From positions 1 to 64,000 of the IMG/VR virus record IMGVR_UViG_3300042307_002096: 64,000 nucleotides of DNA. The stretch is one strand, 5' to 3'. Source of the stretch: a virus. Below the pieces are notes generated by a model. It saw nothing but the letters and a program-made list of their open reading frames with translations. It had not been told where the DNA came from and did no database searches. Below are positions 16,214 to 60,400 of the stretch, piece after piece. Both the position numbers and the translations under genes were made by a program. Within the stretch, counting starts at the first letter, position 1. Every line of letters begins with the position of its first letter.

Positions 16214-16248
16214 TTGACTGTCCGTTTTATTGAGTGATAATATTAGCT

Positions 16249-17253
16249 ATGAAACTAGCAACAATTGAAACAATCAAATCGCTAAAGAAGCATCCAAACG
16301 CTGACAAGCTTGAAATTGCTCAGATTCTTGGCTGGCAATCAGTTGTCCAATCTGGGATACACAAAGAGGGAGATAAAGTCGTCTTTATTGTAATTGACTC
16401 GATTGTTCCTCGTTGTCAATGGTCCGAATTTTTAGTCGATCAAAAAAATCCAGACAAACCAATTCGTTTGAAGATGATCAAGCTCAGAGGAGAACACTCT
16501 GCTGGTATTGTTATTCCGCTTAGTCAGCTTCCAGCTTCTTTTGAGTTGTATGATACTGGAACAGACGTTACTGAATTACTTGGCGTGCAAAAATATATTA
16601 AAGAACTTCCTGCTAGTCTTGGTGGAGAAAATGTTGGAAACTTTCCTACACACATTGCTTCCAAAACAGACGAAGATAACGGATTGTCTGATCCTAAACT
16701 CGTAGAGGAAGTTATTAAACAACATTTAACCATTACTCAAAAATTGGATGGATCAAGCTGTACGGTTGTTGTAGAAGACGGAGTCATTACACAAGTTTGT
16801 TCTCGTAATTTATCAAAGAAAGAAACTGATAAGAGTGCATTCTGGAATGCTGCAAAAAAACTTTCTATTTTGCCTGGATTTACTGGAGTTATCCAAGGAG
16901 AGCTTTGTGGACCTGGTATTCAGCAAAATACTCTTCGTCTTTCTGAGCCGGAACTTTTTGTATTTCAAGTTAAAAAACAAGACGGCAATTATATGAACTA
17001 CCAAGAGATGAAAGGGTTCTGTAATGTGGAATTAAAATGCAATGTCGTGCCTCTTATTGTTGAAACGTCATTTGTTGGATGTGATACTGACGTGGCTATC
17101 TCAAAGCTTCAAGATCTGGCTGACCAACAATTACTTCCAAACAAGAATCCAGCAGAAGGAATTGTAGTTCGCCCTACGGCTTATCCTAGGTCGTACGAGA
17201 GCCGGAGGCCACTGGGATTTAAAATTATTAACAGAAATTATAAAGATACCTGA
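16249..17253 (+). CDS. RNA ligase, DRB0094/Rnl5-like
   Basis: N-terminal HPNADKLE OB-like domain, KTDE, TQKLDGSS, QGELCGPGIQ, EGIVVR. Confidence 0.85.
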   Translation: MKLATIETIKSLKKHPNADKLEIAQILGWQSVVQSGIHKEGDKVVFIVIDSIVPRCQWSEFLVDQKNPDKPIRLKMIKLRGEHSAGIVIPLSQLPASFELYDTGTDVTELLGVQKYIKELPASLGGENVGNFPTHIASKTDEDNGLSDPKLVEEVIKQHLTITQKLDGSSCTVVVEDGVITQVCSRNLSKKETDKSAFWNAAKKLSILPGFTGVIQGELCGPGIQQNTLRLSEPELFVFQVKKQDGNYMNYQEMKGFCNVELKCNVVPLIVETSFVGCDTDVAISKLQDLADQQLLPNKNPAEGIVVRPTAYPRSYESRRPLGFKIINRNYKDT

Positions 17254-17287: not shown

Positions 17288-17751
17288 GGGGGTGTACTGG
17301 TTTCGACAAATGGTTGAAATTAAAAGTGCATGTAGAGGTTGATCGATGGCCTCTTTAAAAATCGATTAAAAAAACTAAACGCAGAATCTAATAATTCTGA
17401 TCTCCTAACTGAAGCTGAATATATCTTCAACAACGCCGACGAAATTCTCGCTGGTGCTGAAGAGTTTTCACTAGCAGCCTAAGAGCCTTATACTGGATCC
17501 TCTAAAAGTATTTGGAAAATGCAGAGGGGTTGCAGTGAGTAGGTGTCTAGCAACAGAAAAGCAACAAGACCTATCGGCAATGGATGTACGATAATATCCA
17601 TAGGTAGACATAAAATACGCGGTTAGTACAACCAAACGACCTAGTGTCCGTGTTACCGCAAGGTGATTGAAACGTTGAATGTACTCAAGCATGTGAAGAT
17701 CTTTTAACGTAAGTTATTTGGACAGGGGTTCGATTCCCCTCACCTCCACCA
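17288..17751 (+). ncRNA. ssrA: tmRNA; tag ORF 17381-17482
   Basis: GGGGGTG..TTTCGAC 5' end, G3:U70, GGTTCGATTCC..CACCTCCACCA 3' end, tag ends LAA-stop. Confidence 0.95.
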
Positions 17752-17777: not shown

Positions 17778-17868
17778 GGACAGATGGCAGAGTTGGTCTA
17801 TTGCATCTGACTAGAAATCAGAAGTGCTCGAAAGGGCACCGTGGGTTCGAATCCTACTCTGTCCGCCA
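17778..17868 (+). tRNA. tRNA-Ser(AGA)
   Basis: tctga-CTAGAAA-tcaga, long variable arm, G73, CCA. Confidence 0.85.
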
Positions 17869-19304: not shown

Positions 19305-19391
19305 CCCGGAGTGTGAGAAGTCTGGTATCTCAGTGCGCTCATAACGCACCGCCTACGTGCCTCGCAGGTTCAAATCCTGCCTCCGGAACCA
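19305..19391 (+). tRNA. tRNA-Met(CAT), initiator-like, atypical
   Basis: C1:A72 mismatch, CTCATAA loop, TTCAAAT T-loop, 14-nt variable region. Confidence 0.8.
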
Positions 19392-20130
19392 TTTGACAAA
19401 ATTTGTTAAATTCTTGTTCAACAAATTTTTTATTAAATTTTCCTAAATCTTTTATAATGTACGGAACGTAACCGTTTTTTACAATTGCTAGTTGTTTTAA
19501 ACGGTCTCGATTTTGAACTTGTAATAAAGAATGTCGTTTAGTTATTTGTTTATAATGCCAAGCACCGTTCCACAAAATTGCAATTTTAAAATCTGGTATT
19601 ATAACATCAGCGTCCCATCCCTCAAACAAAGGCTCATTGTGAAGTACGTTTGCAAATTTGGCTTTACAAAGTTCATAAAAATATATTTCATTTTTGCTCC
19701 GTTTAATTTGTCTGGATGCGGAAACCAACCCTCCAATTCTAGCTCCTTCTTTTTTTCTTTGGGTCGAGCAACCTTCAGAACATGTTTTTCTTTTATGCAA
19801 AGATTCAATTTTCGTCTTACAAACAACGCACTCATACGTCTTCAATGTTTTTGCTTTATATTTTTTATATACTTTTTTTGTTGAAAAAGGAGTTGTCTTT
19901 GTTCGTTGTTTGTTATTAAAAGTTGCAGCACAAGAACGAGAGCAAAATTTTGTATTTTTTCCGTTATTTCTTAATTGCTGATAAGACAATATGCTGTTGC
20001 AGTTTAAGCAGCTTTTAGGATTAGATTTGTACTCTTCTACTCTTTTTTGGTATTGTTCTTTTTGATACTTGCCGGCTCCATTGATATATCTATGGTCCGG
20101 TTTGTTGTTTAACTCTAATCTGTTTTTCAT
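19339..20130 (-). CDS. Free-standing homing-type endonuclease (Zn-ribbons plus PD-(D/E)xK/DUF559-like domain)
   Basis: CxxC/CxxxC repeats; WDADVIIPDFKIAILWNGAWHY..RD..K. Confidence 0.7.
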   Translation of the reverse strand: MKNRLELNNKPDHRYINGAGKYQKEQYQKRVEEYKSNPKSCLNCNSILSYQQLRNNGKNTKFCSRSCAATFNNKQRTKTTPFSTKKVYKKYKAKTLKTYECVVCKTKIESLHKRKTCSEGCSTQRKKEGARIGGLVSASRQIKRSKNEIYFYELCKAKFANVLHNEPLFEGWDADVIIPDFKIAILWNGAWHYKQITKRHSLLQVQNRDRLKQLAIVKNGYVPYIIKDLGKFNKKFVEQEFNKFCQMVPEAGFEPARHVGGAL

Positions 20131-20269
20131 AATTATATTCGAGAGGACAGCTAGTTCTTAATCTGTCTAGTTTCTTTAAAGTTCGTACCTTTAAAGATTA
20201 CTCTCATAAATTATTTATCTTTTTGTGTTGCAATTACAAGAATGTGTAAATAATTATATTCAATTAAAC

Positions 20270-20376
20270 GCCCTGTTAGCTCAGAGGTAGAGCAACGGTT
20301 TTGTGAGTTGTCAGCCTTTTGTCGGACAATTCTCATAAACCGTCGGTCATCCGTTCAAATCGGATACGGGGCTCCA
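20270..20376 (+). tRNA. tRNA-Thr(TGT) with 32-nt anticodon-loop insertion (20305-20336)
   Basis: G1-C72/C2-G71, intact D and T arms, CCA; acggt/accgt stem encloses the insert. Confidence 0.8.
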
Positions 20377-20382
20377 ATTTAA

Positions 20383-20457
20383 TCCTAGGTAGCTCAGCGG
20401 AAGAGTCGTCGGCTGTTAACCGATTGGTCGTAGGTTCGAATCCTACCCTAGGAGCCA
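20383..20457 (+). tRNA. tRNA-Asn(GTT)
   Basis: Loop CT-GTT-AA; G73; CCA. Confidence 0.95.
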
Positions 20458-20613: not shown

Positions 20614-21714
20614 ATGACACTACCTACACTATACGCAAGAACAAATACAGGAGCTATCCAACAATGGACTATTGAAGCTCATAATAACTCATACCGAACA
20701 ACTTTTGGTCAAGTTGACGGTAAGCTTCAAACAACTAATTGGACAGAGTGCTATGAAACTAATACCGGGCGTTCTAATCAAAGAACACCAGAACAGCAAG
20801 CACTGTTTGAAGCTAAGGCTCTTTGGAAAAAGAAAAAGGACTCAGGATATTTTGAAAGCGTTGATGAAATCGATAAGCCAACTTTTGTTGAGCCGATGTT
20901 AGCTAAAAATTACGAAGATTATAAAGACGCCATCAAATTTCCTGTTTTTAGTCAACCAAAGTTGGATGGCATTAGGTGTATTGTAACAAAGAATGGAATG
21001 TTCACGAGAAACGGAAAGTGTATAGAATCTTGTCCTCACATCTTCAACGATCTGCAGAAATTTTTTGTTAATCAACCAACACTAGTGTTTGACGGAGAGC
21101 TCTACAATCACGATCTTAAGCATGACTTTAATAAAATTGCATCTTTGGTAAAAAAGACCAAACCAACAATTGAAGATATTAAAGAATCTTTACAATTAGT
21201 TCAATATTGGATATATGATATAGTCGATACAAATAAATCGTTTAAGGAGCGAATTAAATGGATTATTGACAACATTCAAGGCAGTCATGATTTATCTTTA
21301 ATTGCTGTTCCAACTGCTTTTCCTTCCGACCAACAACAATTGGATAACTTTTACGAAGATTACACTAAACACGGTTTTGAAGGACAGATGATTCGTTTGG
21401 ATACGAGATATGAAAACAAACGTTCAAAGAATCTTCTTAAGCGCAAAGAGTTTCAAGATAGAGAATACGTAATTCTTGATATTATTGAAGGGGAAGGAAA
21501 CAAAGCCGGCATGGCCGGAGCCATGGTATTTCAAAACGAGCTCGGAATTAATTTTAATAGCAATATTAAGGGGTCTCGAGACTTTTTAAAAGAAATTTGG
21601 AAAAACAAAAACCAGTTGATCGGACAACAAGCTACTGTTAAATTCTTTAACTTAACTCCAGATAATAAAGTTCCAAGATTTCCTTATGTCATGTCTATCA
21701 GAAATTATGAATAA
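20614..21714 (+). CDS. ATP-dependent DNA ligase
   Basis: PMLA, QPKLDGIRC, FDGELY, EGQMIR, LLKRK, PRFP. Confidence 0.95.
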   Translation: MTLPTLYARTNTGAIQQWTIEAHNNSYRTTFGQVDGKLQTTNWTECYETNTGRSNQRTPEQQALFEAKALWKKKKDSGYFESVDEIDKPTFVEPMLAKNYEDYKDAIKFPVFSQPKLDGIRCIVTKNGMFTRNGKCIESCPHIFNDLQKFFVNQPTLVFDGELYNHDLKHDFNKIASLVKKTKPTIEDIKESLQLVQYWIYDIVDTNKSFKERIKWIIDNIQGSHDLSLIAVPTAFPSDQQQLDNFYEDYTKHGFEGQMIRLDTRYENKRSKNLLKRKEFQDREYVILDIIEGEGNKAGMAGAMVFQNELGINFNSNIKGSRDFLKEIWKNKNQLIGQQATVKFFNLTPDNKVPRFPYVMSIRNYE

Positions 21715-33810: not shown

Positions 33811-34092
33811 ATGTCTAAAGAAACATTAAACATCACACTCACAGAAGAAGGTCTTGCTTCAGTAATTTCCGCTTTGCTTTTTTCTTGTTCCGTCAACGTC
33901 ACTTCAAATACAAACGAAGAATATCAGCAAGAATTGTTTGCTGTAGCTAAACAACTCAAAAAAGTTAAGCCAGATATCAAGCTTGACAATATCCAATTTT
34001 TGAAGGAAGATGATTATGAGGACTCACTTTCTGCTGATCTTTTGAAAGAATTTAAAAATAATTTAGAAGTGACTTCGTTTGATAATATTTGA
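33811..34092 (+). CDS. Hypothetical protein
   Basis: TTGACA...TAAACT promoter immediately upstream. Confidence 0.6.
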   Translation: MSKETLNITLTEEGLASVISALLFSCSVNVTSNTNEEYQQELFAVAKQLKKVKPDIKLDNIQFLKEDDYEDSLSADLLKEFKNNLEVTSFDNI

Positions 34093-34093
34093 T

Positions 34094-34540
34094 ATGGGAA
34101 ATTATACTTCTACTAAAATTATTGAATTGGGTTCTTGTGCTTTTAGGCAATGGAAAGCTGACGGAACTCATTGTCGGTTCTTGCATGGGTATCGCTTGAT
34201 GGCTAAGTTTTGGTTTGAATGTTCTGAATTAGATCACCGCAATTGGGGAGTCAATTTTGGAGGACTGAAAGAACTCAAACAAATCCTTCAAAAGCAATTT
34301 GATCATACTTTATGTATATCTGCTGATGATCCTCTTCTTGCTATATTTAAAATGTTGGACGGACAAGGTGGGTGCGAACTCCGAATTATGGATGGTGTAG
34401 GAATTGAAAAAACAGCAGAGTGGTGTTTTAATGCAGCTCAATTATTTTTAGAATCAAACGAAGAAACCCGCAATCGTTGCTGGGTTTCAAAAGTAGAAGT
34501 TTGGGAACATGAACAAAACAGTGCAATTTATACAAAATAA
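34094..34540 (+). CDS. queD: 6-carboxytetrahydropterin synthase
   Basis: HCRFLHGY, FDH, E..A, V.VWE...NSA.Y. Confidence 0.85.
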   Translation: MGNYTSTKIIELGSCAFRQWKADGTHCRFLHGYRLMAKFWFECSELDHRNWGVNFGGLKELKQILQKQFDHTLCISADDPLLAIFKMLDGQGGCELRIMDGVGIEKTAEWCFNAAQLFLESNEETRNRCWVSKVEVWEHEQNSAIYTK

Positions 34541-46880: not shown

Positions 46881-48677
46881 ATGCGATTTATTACGTTTAA
46901 AACCCTCGAAGGTAGAAATTTTTTATCTTTTGGAGACAGTCTTGTTCATGTTGATTTAAGGCCAGGCGTTAACGCTATTATTGGTACCAATTACGACAAA
47001 GAAGATTCTAAAAACGGAGCTGGTAAATCTAGTATTACCGAATTACTTTACTATTCGTTGTATGGCAATACGCTTCGAGAAATTTCTAAAGATCATATTC
47101 AAAATAGTTTAACTAAAAAACGTTGTGAAGTATCATTAGAATTTGACGTCACCTCAAATAGTGTGACTGATTCTTATAAAATTGTAAGGATGCTTAATCC
47201 AACAAAATGTTTGCTTCTTAAAAACGGACAAGATGTAACTAGATCAACTCTTGCTAAAACAAATGCTTTAATTCAAGAATTAATTCATACTCCAGCTACA
47301 GTTTTTCAAAACTCAGTTATTATGTCAGTAAATACTGCATTGCCGTTTATGGCTCTGCCAAAAACAGACAAAAGAAAGTTTATTGAAAGCGTTCTTGGAC
47401 TTGAAGTATTTACTCAAATGGTTCTTAAAGCCAGAGATGATTATAGTATCGCCAAAAAAGATTATGAAATAGCTTATACAAAATTTGAACAAACTCAAAC
47501 AGAACTTGCTTTTAATCAATCTCAATTTGATAACTATAAAACGTTAAAAACAGAACGTCTAAATAAATTAAACGATAAAAAAACTACTCTCTTAGGTGAT
47601 ATCCAAAATCTTAAATCTAAAATTGCTAAATTTGACACTCTAACAACAGAAGAGGATAAAAATAAAATTGTACATTTTGAAGAACAACTTTGTGAGTTAA
47701 GTGAAAAGAAAAGCAATTTACAATCTAAAATTAACGTAATTCAAACTGAAATTAATTCCGAAAACAAACAAATAAAAAATTTACAAACAAATAAAGATAC
47801 ATGTCCAACATGCTCAAGAGAATATTCCGAAGAGCATGTAGTGCACGTATCCAATTTAATTGCTAACCATAATCTTAATATTGAAAAATTTTCCAAAGCA
47901 GAAGGTAAGGTCAAAGAGTCGTTATTAAAAATTGAAAACGACATTACTAATATTCAAGCTACTAAAAAAATTTGTGCAGAAAATATAGATCAAATTAAAC
48001 AACTCATTAGCAACAATAAATCATTTGAATTAAGCATTAATCATTTAGAGTCAAATTTAAAGGACGTAGAAGAAGATATTGAGGTTGTTGCTAAGGAGCA
48101 AAACAATGAACTTAAAGGAAAAATTACTACTTTAAAAACAACAACTGATGAACTTCAACAAAAAGTAGATAAGCTAAATAACGACTTAAATGTGTTAGAA
48201 ACCGTAAAGTTTGTTATTTCAGAAGAAGGAATTAAATCATTTATTGTAAAAAAAATTCTTAAAGTATTAAATTCGAGACTGGCATTTTATCTTAAAAAGC
48301 TTGAAGCAAATTGTCTTTGCCAATTTAACGAATTTTTTGACGAAGAAATTATTGATGAAAGCTCAAACCAAAAATCATATTTTAATTTTTCTGGTGGAGA
48401 GCGCAAACGAATTGATTTAGCTTGTTTATTTGCTTTTGCTGACATTCGCAGACTTCAAGGAGATGTTAATTTTAGTACCGTATTTTATGACGAACTTCTT
48501 GATTCGTCTTTGGACGATAAAGGCGTCTCATTAACTCTTAAAGTTCTTCGGGAACGTTTTAATGAAAATAACGAATCTTGTTATATTATTACTCACAGAG
48601 GACCTGAAGTAACAACAAAAGCAGAGCATACGATCCATGTAATAAAACGCAATGGTATCTCAGCTGTTTCGTGCTAG
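46881..48677 (+). CDS. Recombination ATPase (gp46/Rad50-like)
   Basis: NGAGKS, CPTC hook, FSGGE, DELLD, ITH. Confidence 0.95.
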   Translation: MRFITFKTLEGRNFLSFGDSLVHVDLRPGVNAIIGTNYDKEDSKNGAGKSSITELLYYSLYGNTLREISKDHIQNSLTKKRCEVSLEFDVTSNSVTDSYKIVRMLNPTKCLLLKNGQDVTRSTLAKTNALIQELIHTPATVFQNSVIMSVNTALPFMALPKTDKRKFIESVLGLEVFTQMVLKARDDYSIAKKDYEIAYTKFEQTQTELAFNQSQFDNYKTLKTERLNKLNDKKTTLLGDIQNLKSKIAKFDTLTTEEDKNKIVHFEEQLCELSEKKSNLQSKINVIQTEINSENKQIKNLQTNKDTCPTCSREYSEEHVVHVSNLIANHNLNIEKFSKAEGKVKESLLKIENDITNIQATKKICAENIDQIKQLISNNKSFELSINHLESNLKDVEEDIEVVAKEQNNELKGKITTLKTTTDELQQKVDKLNNDLNVLETVKFVISEEGIKSFIVKKILKVLNSRLAFYLKKLEANCLCQFNEFFDEEIIDESSNQKSYFNFSGGERKRIDLACLFAFADIRRLQGDVNFSTVFYDELLDSSLDDKGVSLTLKVLRERFNENNESCYIITHRGPEVTTKAEHTIHVIKRNGISAVSC

Positions 48678-58776: not shown

Positions 58777-59730
58777 ATGAGTATTAACACTAAATCAATG
58801 TTCGAAGCAATCAAGCAATCTCTTTCCTCAGATAAGAAGGAAGGTAACGGAAACGGTCTTTATAAAGAAATTATGAAGTTTTCCGCTGGTAATACATATC
58901 AGGTCCGCTTGGTACCAAATCCAAATTCTCCTAAAGAGACAATCTTTCATTATTACAATCACGGCTGGAATTCTAACGCGACAGGCAAGTATGTGACAGC
59001 ACTTTGTCCAACTACATTTGGAGATACGTGCCCAATTGATGCTTATTATCTAAAAACATACCGTACTGGTACCGAATCAGAAAAAGAAGCAGCTCGTGTT
59101 TTGTCGCGAAAAGAAGCCTGGATGGTTAACGTATATGTTATTTCAGATCCAGAAAATCCCGAGAACGAAGGAAAGGTTAAAATTCTTCGTTACGGAAAAG
59201 AGCTAGCTAAAATTATTGACTCTGCTCTTGAAGGAGATGATGCTGCAGAATTTGGAGTCGAGAAGGTATTTGACACTGCTAATGGGAGTACACTTCGTAT
59301 TAAGTGCGAAAGCCGTACTGGTGCTGGCCGTGGAAACAAGCAAATGGTTACGTATGCTTCCTCTAAGTTCTTGGCGCCAACTGCACTGGATCTAGATGAA
59401 ACTGCTATCGAACAAATTTACGGCACAGTACATGACCTTAAAGCTGTAAACAAGCAAACTACTCCAGCTGAAATGCAACGCTTGCTTGACGAACATTTCT
59501 TTAATTTGACTACAGGTTCTGTAGTTGAAGATGATTCTGACGATGAATATGCTCCAATTCGTAACGAAAAGCCCTCGTCAGTTAAGAAAACAGCAGAAGT
59601 AATTGAGAGCGTTTTTGAAGATGTTGAAACACCATTTAAACCTGCTGCTAAAATTTCCGCAAAAGAAGAAATTAATGAAACAGACGAGTCCACTGATGAA
59701 GCTTTGAAAAAATTGCTTGCTGATCTGTAA
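58777..59730 (+). CDS. ssDNA-binding protein (gp32-like)
   Basis: VRLVP, H..., CP....CPI, NVYV..DP.NPENEGKV, acidic tail. Confidence 0.9.
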   Translation: MSINTKSMFEAIKQSLSSDKKEGNGNGLYKEIMKFSAGNTYQVRLVPNPNSPKETIFHYYNHGWNSNATGKYVTALCPTTFGDTCPIDAYYLKTYRTGTESEKEAARVLSRKEAWMVNVYVISDPENPENEGKVKILRYGKELAKIIDSALEGDDAAEFGVEKVFDTANGSTLRIKCESRTGAGRGNKQMVTYASSKFLAPTALDLDETAIEQIYGTVHDLKAVNKQTTPAEMQRLLDEHFFNLTTGSVVEDDSDDEYAPIRNEKPSSVKKTAEVIESVFEDVETPFKPAAKISAKEEINETDESTDEALKKLLADL

Positions 59731-59752
59731 TATTAGATTAATCTTTAAAAAT

Positions 59753-60400
59753 ATGGAACTACTTAAAAAAGCTAACGGTAATATTGTTCGTACAGCAGAA
59801 GAAAAAGCTCATATGATTGAGCAAGCTGCTGAATATTATGGAAAATTTTTGACCTCTTTGGGTTTTGATTGGGCAGCTGATCCTCATTCTGCAAACACTC
59901 CTCGCAGAGTTGCTAAAGCATGGGTGAATGATTTAATTTCCGGGTCAATCAGCCCAGAACCAGAAGTTACTGCATTTCCCAACGATGAAGGTTATACCGG
60001 TTTGATTTGTCAGACTCGCATTCCAGTAGTTAGTATGTGTGCTCATCACAATTTGATGTTTTCGGGAGTTTGTCACGCGGCTTACATCCCTGGTAAAAGC
60101 ATAACTGATATGGTTATTGGTTTGAGTAAACTTAATCGTATTGTAGACTTTTACTCCAGACGGCCAAACATTCAAGAGAGTTTGACAAAGCAGATTCACG
60201 ATCATATTAACCGGCTGTGTATAGGTAATAGAGGAACAGCTGTTGTAATTGAGAGTCAACACAATTGTGTAAAGTGCCGAGGAATCAAGCATGACAGCGT
60301 CATGAAAACTAGCCAAATGTCTGGCTACTTTTTTTCCAACGAAATTGGTACAAGGCAAGAGTTCTTTAATTTGATTGATCACAGCAGATTTGGATCATAA
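59753..60400 (+). CDS. folE: GTP cyclohydrolase I
   Basis: TPRRVAK, SMCAHH, GLSKL.R, QE.LT, H.C...RG. Confidence 0.95.
   Translation: MELLKKANGNIVRTAEEKAHMIEQAAEYYGKFLTSLGFDWAADPHSANTPRRVAKAWVNDLISGSISPEPEVTAFPNDEGYTGLICQTRIPVVSMCAHHNLMFSGVCHAAYIPGKSITDMVIGLSKLNRIVDFYSRRPNIQESLTKQIHDHINRLCIGNRGTAVVIESQHNCVKCRGIKHDSVMKTSQMSGYFFSNEIGTRQEFFNLIDHSRFGS

Follow-up and report, generated by a model that had tools for sequence, protein, structure and literature searches.

Protein-dependent splicing of tRNA is textbook knowledge for archaea and eukaryotes, in which the intron is presented in a bulge-helix-bulge motif (two 3-nt bulges with a 4-bp helix between them and the splice sites in the bulges), cut out by an EndA/Sen endonuclease and the exons joined by the RtcB or Trl1 ligase. 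For tRNAs of bacteria and bacterial viruses, the only introns recognized, to our knowledge, are self-splicing ones of group I, and introns of that class have a catalytic core (P3-P8), exceed about 200 nt and end in a 3' G. The closest described system is found in the Lak megaphages, for which Devoto et al. (2019; PMC6784885), in the passages dealing with tRNAs, describe short tRNA introns that they call enigmatic and state to be previously unreported, including one in tRNA-Thr(TGT) whose insert lies one letter off the predicted site; the mechanism of their removal is given there as unknown. Here we describe a 32-nt insert in the anticodon loop of a tRNA-Thr(UGU) gene carried by a T4-like phage from lake water. 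The stretch analyzed (the window) is the first 64 kb (64,000 nt) of IMG/VR virus record IMGVR_UViG_3300042307_002096, a 78,040-base record (G000) rated about 37% complete. From comparison with relatives we judge the chances to be about even that these 32 nt are a real hairpin mini-intron in a functional, probably the only, tRNA-Thr(UGU) gene of this phage and that they are removed from the RNA.

The likeness to the Lak introns lies in phage tRNA inserts that are present or absent among relatives, highly conserved where present and off the canonical site (PMC6784885); the insert of the window likewise sits in the anticodon loop of a phage tRNA, is exactly absent in relatives and is conserved where present. 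In contrast, the Lak phages are gut Prevotella phages of ~540 kb, and for their tRNA-Thr insert it is suggested that it may itself encode a tRNA (PMC6784885), whereas the present case is a T4-like lake phage with a plain hairpin of 29-32 nt and an anticodon-pairing tail, the two systems being compared by their descriptions. Devoto et al. (2019), in the passages on these introns, is the single paper we found that reports short phage tRNA introns, and the locus described here is a variant of this barely described kind of phage tRNA intron.

The Rfam tRNA model RF00005 covered 20270-20373 at 52.3 bits (cut-off 29), which places the locus in the tRNA family, with 35 letters occupying three anticodon-loop positions of the model. 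Exact placement of the insert came from synteny. Using the ATP-dependent DNA ligase gene as an anchor, we located orthologous tRNA clusters in three related phage loci (L002, L003 and L004), among which L003 is without any tRNA. The DNA ligases of L002 and L004 are 77-79% identical to that of the window, and both loci have the order tRNA-Met, tRNA-Thr(tgt), tRNA-Asn(gtt), tRNA-Arg(tct), DNA ligase; in the window, the interrupted tRNA-Thr is followed by Asn, Arg and the DNA ligase. Alignment with the syntenic tRNA-Thr(tgt) of L002 and L004 opened a single 32-column gap, and the anticodon arm was otherwise letter-identical. Since a T flanks the insert on both ends, two placements are equal (after position 36 or after position 35), and the insert site is therefore 35/36 or 36/37. 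An earlier note, made from the letters of the window alone, had proposed a tRNA-Thr with a 32-nt insert at the anticodon, away from the canonical 37/38 site, and the Rfam score together with the exact gap bears out both points. The same note had seen an alternative CAT loop hidden by the insert; the same place reads CTT, CGT, CGT and CGT in four relatives, suggesting that the CAT of the window is a coincidence.

Default ARAGORN did not call a tRNA-Thr at 20270-20376, and with introns allowed it found a tRNA there that it read as His(gtg) with a 30-nt intron. We rejected this label (also given to the homologs L016 and L017 described below) as well as the Asn(gtt) label given to the homologs L011 and L012, because both need a shifted stem and the label changes between orthologs. 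When the insert was removed in silico, default ARAGORN called tRNA-Thr(tgt) in 4/4 complete members of the family, including the window, and the loop left behind was that of the intronless orthologs in 5/5 sequences. The pairs G1-C72 and C2-G71, which we take to be identity elements for ThrRS, are both present. Among 28 GenBank phage records matching either exon, 18 are annotated as tRNA-Thr and none contains both exons around an insert; an 801-nt query against GenBank phages matched only in its tRNA-Asn part in the best 40 of 642 records. On these grounds we assign the interrupted gene to tRNA-Thr(UGU). A complete related genome without the insert (G002, 217 kb) has one tRNA-Thr, at the orthologous place, and no second tRNA-Thr was found in the 78 kb of G000 (ARAGORN, introns allowed), so by synteny with the complete relative the interrupted gene is probably the only tRNA-Thr(UGU) of the phage. 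The insert region stands with 0 differences in contigs of three other lake-water runs, indicating that it is not an assembly artefact, and among the contigs of DNA runs X2-X4 none bridges the site without the 32 nt.

We then searched for related genes with a pattern made of the D arm and both anticodon-stem strands, with 15-45 free letters between the latter. This anchored pattern returned one further viral contig (G001, a 49-kb IMG/VR record) and seven metagenome loci, and four of these loci are tRNA-Thr genes interrupted at the same site by a homologous insert (L011 and L012, 29 nt each; L016 and L017, 32 nt each). L011 is the same contig as G001, the tRNA of L016 is cut by the contig end, and run X3 has a contig with a 29-nt-type variant. 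The family thus consists of five distinct sequences (window, L011/G001, L012, L016 and L017) plus the X3 fragment, with L011 and L012 near-identical. Similar inserts elsewhere, which the earlier note had proposed to look for, therefore turned up in four other metagenomic sequences, and the lack of conservation that it had named as speaking against its idea did not materialize, the insert being conserved in five sequences. Searches with less or other context added nothing to the family: an exact 30-mer of the insert had 0 matches among viral contigs; a looser tRNA-anchored pattern hit five loci in viral contigs, four of them non-tRNA (L006, L007, L009 and L010) and the fifth G001; a core motif of the insert hit nine loci in viral contigs, none with a tRNA; and a loop-plus-insert motif found G001 alone among viral contigs and gave six matches in genome contigs, none in a tRNA (five are one repeat in Acidobacteriota-type assemblies and one lies in a Phocaeicola assembly). 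A dispersed palindromic element of the REP or MITE kind was rejected, since the insert has one copy in 78 kb and the motif matches are unrelated (9/9 viral and 6/6 genome).

The anticodon arm of the interrupted gene, insert included, folded at -18.4 kcal/mol (z = -4.5), a value that none of 200 shuffles reached. The family keeps an 8-bp helix that joins insert letters 1-8 with 21-28 (window 20305-20312 with 20325-20332), closed by G-C in three members and by U-A in the other two, a compensatory swap, and the insert helix is 96.8% paired in the five sequences. Above the 8-bp helix lie an A.G layer and a G-C pair (window 20313-20314 with 20323-20324), and the apical part is variable, with loops UUUU, UUCG, UUUA or AAAUU. 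In the 3' tail of the insert (N-C-N-U throughout the family), anticodon G35 has the C as its partner in 5/5 sequences, U36 the letter before it in 4/5 and U34 the letter after it in 4/5; the last U is invariant and bulged. Together with U32-A38 and U33-A37, these pairs would form a near-continuous rod of ~20 pairs from the anticodon stem to the tip. Since the 4-nt tail pairs with the anticodon, the precursor would be unable to decode, in agreement with the sequestered anticodon of the earlier note. The hairpin drawn in that note exists as well, and what did not survive is its outer register TTGTGAG/CTCATAA: possible in the window, it is not kept in relatives, three of its pairs being unpaired in 2, 4 and 2 of the five sequences, and it has no compensated pair.

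Pair counts over the cloverleaf and the extended anticodon arm, in an alignment of the 5 homologs, were compared with 500 shuffles and with slid controls. Standard pairs filled 98.3% of 173 pair cells (slid controls: 27-45% paired), and 10 of 35 pairs had changed on both sides (shuffled mean: 5.6; 1 of 500 shuffles reached 10). Both the acceptor stem and the T stem are 100% paired, with compensated changes in 4/7 and 5/5 pairs, respectively, suggesting that the exons behave as working, and not as decaying, tRNA genes. With the near-identical pair L011/L012 left out, identity ranged from 0.71 to 0.83 in the exons and from 0.62 to 0.88 in the insert; since the insert has diverged about as much as the exons, long joint descent fits better than recent spread. 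The comparison agrees with an intervening sequence that a functioning tRNA gene has retained over a long time rather than with a recent disruption.

The neighboring gene of one relative shows a second case. Directly after the interrupted tRNA-Thr of L017 comes an ortholog of the tRNA-Asn(GUU) that is uninterrupted in the window (L017 520-642), and in this ortholog an unrelated insert of 49 nt lies, without ambiguity, between positions 35 and 36. The insert holds a T-arm-like hairpin, and here too the 3' tail is paired to the anticodon loop, in its 5' part. That tRNA-Thr and tRNA-Asn bear unrelated inserts at one and the same position suggests a machinery guided by the tRNA body, or by a general architecture of hairpin plus anticodon-pairing tail, rather than by the sequence of the insert. 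ARAGORN with introns allowed also reported tRNAs with short anticodon-loop inserts at L014 2366-2478 and 2982-3083 and at L013 84-185: in L014, 42 nt interrupt a tRNA-Gly(GCC) at 37/38, and in both L013 and L014 an insert of 27 nt lies in another tRNA, whose anticodon ARAGORN reads as TAT. In L094 (3576-3661) and L096 (3582-3667), ARAGORN found an 86-nt tRNA(TAT) with 15 extra nt adjoining a relative of the HNH endonuclease gene listed in the table. L015 (1-304) has an intact tRNA-Thr(UGU) followed by two partial copies of its 3' part that bear other inserts in the anticodon loop and T loop, an arrangement that is cassette-like and unlike the window. In L012, ~840 bp upstream of the interrupted tRNA-Thr (1691-2528) are without an open reading frame (ORF) of >=40 aa, a tRNA or a tmRNA.

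Features of the interrupted tRNA-Thr locus (window positions unless marked G000)
Feature	Position	Strand	Basis or detail
5' exon, tRNA-Thr(UGU)	20270-20304	+	acceptor 5' strand, D arm; RF00005 alignment, intronless orthologs
Anticodon stem 5' strand (5' exon)	20295-20299		followed by loop positions 32-36 = TTTGT
32-nt insert	20305-20336 (equally 20304-20335)	+	32-column gap against L002/L004, minimum free energy fold, pair counts
Insert 3' tail	20333-20336	+	T-C-A-T in the window, N-C-N-T in the family
3' exon	20337-20376	+	positions 37-38 (AA), anticodon stem 3' strand 20339-20343, variable loop, T arm, acceptor 3' strand, discriminator T, encoded CCA 20374-20376
tRNA-Asn(GUU), uninterrupted	20383-20457	+	
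ATP-dependent DNA ligase	20614-21714	+	synteny anchor
RNA ligase, Naegleria gruberi type	16234-17253	+	N-terminal OB domain and nucleotidyltransferase; PF21189, PF09414, PHROG 968
Rnl1-type RNA ligase, outside the window	G000 73665-74753		PF09511; T4 Rnl1 structures, E ~5e-5
HNH endonuclease, 140 bp upstream of the interrupted tRNA	19339-20130	-	PHROG 1271, synteny
87-nt tRNA(CAU), long extra arm	19305-19391	+	overlapped by HNH 3' end; ARAGORN, RF00005 42.9 bits

That the insert is a spliced tRNA intron had been among the ideas of the earlier note, and of the readings considered it agrees best with the comparison of relatives. The insert helix (~12 layers) of the precursor would stack on the anticodon stem, with the anticodon masked by the tail. 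Two endonucleolytic cuts, one after U36 (or G35) and one after the invariant bulged U, would release the hairpin, and an RNA ligase, most simply one of the two encoded by the phage, would reseal a 7-nt loop from TTTGT and AA. The cutter may be RNase P, deceived by the likeness of the hairpin to an acceptor stem, or an endonuclease measuring from the tRNA body. For RNase P, which is a guess for the 5' cut, the substrate would be the helix of 10-12 layers with its N-C-N-U tail taken for an acceptor stem, and cleavage would occur immediately ahead of the first pair of the helix, with a U on its 5' side; such a cut, combined with one at the bulged U leaving a 3'-OH and a 5'-phosphate, would produce joinable ends, as phage ATP-dependent ligases join 3'-OH and 5'-phosphate ends. 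The alternative guess of an enzyme measuring from the tRNA body comes from the relative whose neighboring tRNA-Asn has an unrelated insert at 35/36. RNase III was also considered and rejected: it cuts with a 2-nt stagger, whereas the needed cuts are offset by 3 bp plus the bulge, and it fits only the non-conserved register TTGTGAG/CTCATAA.

The RNA ligase that the earlier note had placed about 3 kb away is indeed encoded in the window; it is of the Naegleria gruberi type (NgrRnl-like), matched PDB 5cot at E = 2.9e-33 and is a candidate for the sealing enzyme. The second ligase of the record is of the Rnl1 type, and a metallophosphoesterase gene adjoins it (the two genes together span G000 72620-74753). 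Both ligase types are usual in T4-like phages. The insert-bearing G001 has a homolog of the NgrRnl-like ligase (64% identity), and the complete, intronless G002 is without an NgrRnl-like ligase and without an intact Rnl1; at G002 76239-77292 the esterase is kept and Rnl1 is a 113-residue C-terminal remnant with an internal stop. Only an RNA ligase, the HNH protein, a lysozyme-like protein and a DUF7831 protein are present in G000 and G001 and absent in G002. This distribution gives a weak hint toward a need for the ligase, and removal of the insert may require it. A nearby precedent is T4 tRNA repair, in which a cleaved anticodon loop is healed by Pnkp and sealed by Rnl1. The likeness is that of a T4-like phage with an Rnl1-type ligase able to seal a break in the anticodon loop; the difference is that the T4 break is made by a host defense nuclease in a host tRNA, whereas here it would be programmed and would fall in a precursor encoded by the phage itself. 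The 78 kb of G000 showed no Pnkp.

Several observations weigh against removal of the insert by splicing. No endonuclease candidate came from a Pfam scan of 108 of the 121 ORFs of G000, a record about 37% complete: none of the 108 was named tRNA-intron endonuclease, ribonuclease III, RtcB or polynucleotide kinase, and the EndA family was absent from their Pfam matches. The splicing endonuclease that the earlier note had suggested looking for was thus not found by Pfam in these 78 kb, and a PHROG scan of 19 further ORFs named no nuclease. The 3' cut matches no known enzyme, and the guess of RNase P is weakened by apical loops that are not T-loop-like and by a helix of 10-11 layers in the 29-nt form. 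The family is small, with two of its five sequences nearly identical, and if the insert had entered already diverged tRNA genes independently, the covariation of the exons would predate it. Among 55 loci with homologs of the NgrRnl-like ligase, none has a short-insert tRNA within 10 kb, and all four of the ligase loci examined for it (L074, L053, L058 and L070) carry an uninterrupted tRNA-Thr; since common homologs occur beside uninterrupted tRNA-Thr, the ligase clearly has other uses. Introns of 189-680 nt that ARAGORN proposed at six ligase loci are presumed false. The single metatranscriptome run compared (X24), with zero cover over the tRNA-Thr (20283-20339), speaks neither for nor against splicing.

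The HNH gene and the long tRNA(CAU) form a convergent pair. L002 and L004 have no HNH at the corresponding place, where an ordinary tRNA-Met of 72 nt immediately precedes tRNA-Thr. The pair recurs in G001 (47458-48007), at a distance of ~1.1 kb to the interrupted gene; of 15 loci with relatives of the HNH gene, four have it (L083, L089, L090 and L095) and 10 lie in tRNA clusters. In all these pairs the tRNA has 83-92 nt and lies on the strand opposite to the HNH gene, whose 3' end abuts or overlaps it. G002 has no HNH homolog, and no HNH ORF was found in the 0.4-1.1 kb available beside the genes of L012, L016 and L017. The HNH gene and the long tRNA(CAU) look like a nuclease (homing) cassette that brings its own replacement tRNA-Met, and the pairing points to the tRNA-Met site as the probable HNH target. 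The tRNA-Thr genes beside the HNH homologs of L083 and L090 have a different anticodon stem and are uninformative on HNH targeting of the Thr site. Free-standing homing nucleases of this setting are known from T4, with SegB in tRNA clusters, and from the cyanophage psbA intron with F-CphI, a case of collaborative homing in which the intron has no endonuclease of its own. As in collaborative homing, the HNH gene adjoins the interrupted gene, and insert and HNH are both absent from the close intronless relative; unlike it, the HNH gene is linked to the long tRNA(CAU) (the 4 of 15 loci, the window and G001) and, within their short contigs, is not beside three of the five family members. The HNH may have a role in spreading the Thr insert by collaborative homing, or is possibly unrelated to it.

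By gene content, the phage of G000 is a T4-like myovirus: genes for a gp32-like protein, a family B DNA polymerase, a RecA/UvsX-like protein, a DnaB-like helicase, a Rad50/Mre11-like pair, a T4-type large terminase, a tail sheath and a SegE-type GIY-YIG nuclease are present. Runs containing its DNA are lake and freshwater metagenomes. G000 encodes a tmRNA and a tRNA gene cluster, which indicates a bacterial host. The tmRNA lies at 17288-17751 (115.9 bits), and a similar tag peptide is kept in the relatives L002, L004 and L058; next to it, at 17778-17868, is a tRNA-Ser with the unusual anticodon AGA (ARAGORN; Rfam 57.5 bits). Protein genes for a 6-pyruvoyl-tetrahydropterin synthase-like protein (34079-34540) and GTP cyclohydrolase I (59717-60400) are presumably of the kind serving 7-deazaguanine modification.

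A selfish or accidental insertion at the DNA level, such as a palindromic mini-element or a protection against a homing nuclease, would have inactivated the tRNA and left a dispensable pseudogene. The insert is an inverted repeat, the HNH gene lies 140 bp upstream in the window and ~1.1 kb away in G001 and is missing from the intronless G002, and L015 offers broken tRNA-Thr copies with other inserts beside an intact one. We nevertheless regard an inactivating insertion as rather unlikely, because neither the 78 kb nor, by motif scan, any other context holds a second copy of the insert, the stems of the exons are fully paired with many compensated changes while the insert has diverged as much as the exons, no HNH ORF stands beside the genes of L012, L016 and L017, and the pairing of HNH with the long tRNA(CAU) points to the tRNA-Met site. 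The conserved tRNA body, together with an anticodon paired in the fold (G35-C in 5/5 sequences; U36-A and U34 in 4/5 each), would also suit a tRNA-shaped RNA that is never spliced and, as a decoy, draws off a host nuclease directed at tRNAs or some other tRNA-binding factor, or is stored as a precursor resistant to anticodon nucleases, and phage tRNAs do counter anticodon nucleases. A decoy, though, would have no need of the match between the loop left after removal and that of the intronless orthologs in all five sequences, and the gene is the sole tRNA-Thr in the complete relative, so that the lineage appears to decode with it; we consider an unspliced role improbable.

Known classes of intron fare worse. 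Archaeal and eukaryotic introns resemble the insert in being short, in having an anticodon-intron helix with the 3' site at a bulge and in needing a nuclease and a ligase, and the insert, at 29-32 nt, has a typical size and the same topology: the anticodon-intron helix separates the 5' site, at its distal end, from the 3' site, at a bulge adjoining the anticodon stem. It lacks a bulge-helix-bulge, however: the anticodon-tail helix has 3 bp, with one 1-nt bulge and no 5' bulge (fold read by eye), in place of two 3-nt bulges and a 4-bp central helix, and the site is 35/36 or 36/37 instead of 37/38. The virus is bacterial, as its tmRNA indicates, and no EndA or RtcB is among the Pfam matches of the 108 ORFs scanned in the record of about 37% completeness; cutting by a phage- or host-encoded bulge-helix-bulge endonuclease is thus very improbable. 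Self-splicing or self-cleaving RNA, in the form of a reduced group I intron or a small ribozyme, we find scarcely credible. Group I introns of bacterial tRNAs do share non-canonical anticodon-loop sites and a patchy distribution with the insert, and in one register a U precedes the 5' site, but the insert has neither the length of >200 nt nor a catalytic core nor a terminal G (it ends in T or, in the other register, in A/T/G), its apex is variable, and, as the earlier note had held, 32 nt are too short to contain the core of a group I intron. No group I model of Rfam matched the insert, no curated Rfam model of a known self-cleaving ribozyme matched in 20200-20450, and in an E-value scan of the same interval tRNA was the only family to reach E = 0.1, with one sRNA model at E = 0.15.

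More tentatively than the mini-intron itself, and with some doubt, we propose that T4-like lake phages perform enzyme-catalyzed tRNA splicing in bacteria, with a 35/36 cut in at least two tRNAs and resealing by a phage ligase. The locus is a compact test case for this proposal, as it combines a 32-nt insert of conserved fold with exact intronless orthologs, a covarying family and two candidate ligases. Genes of this kind are missed by tRNA finders in bacterial mode, as they were here by default ARAGORN. If splicing is true, it would be a new RNA-processing route in bacterial viruses and would give phage RNA ligases a role beyond repair; the masked precursor could let the phage time the availability of its tRNA or withhold it altogether, for example until its own ligase has been made, or could stay beyond the reach of host anticodon nucleases.

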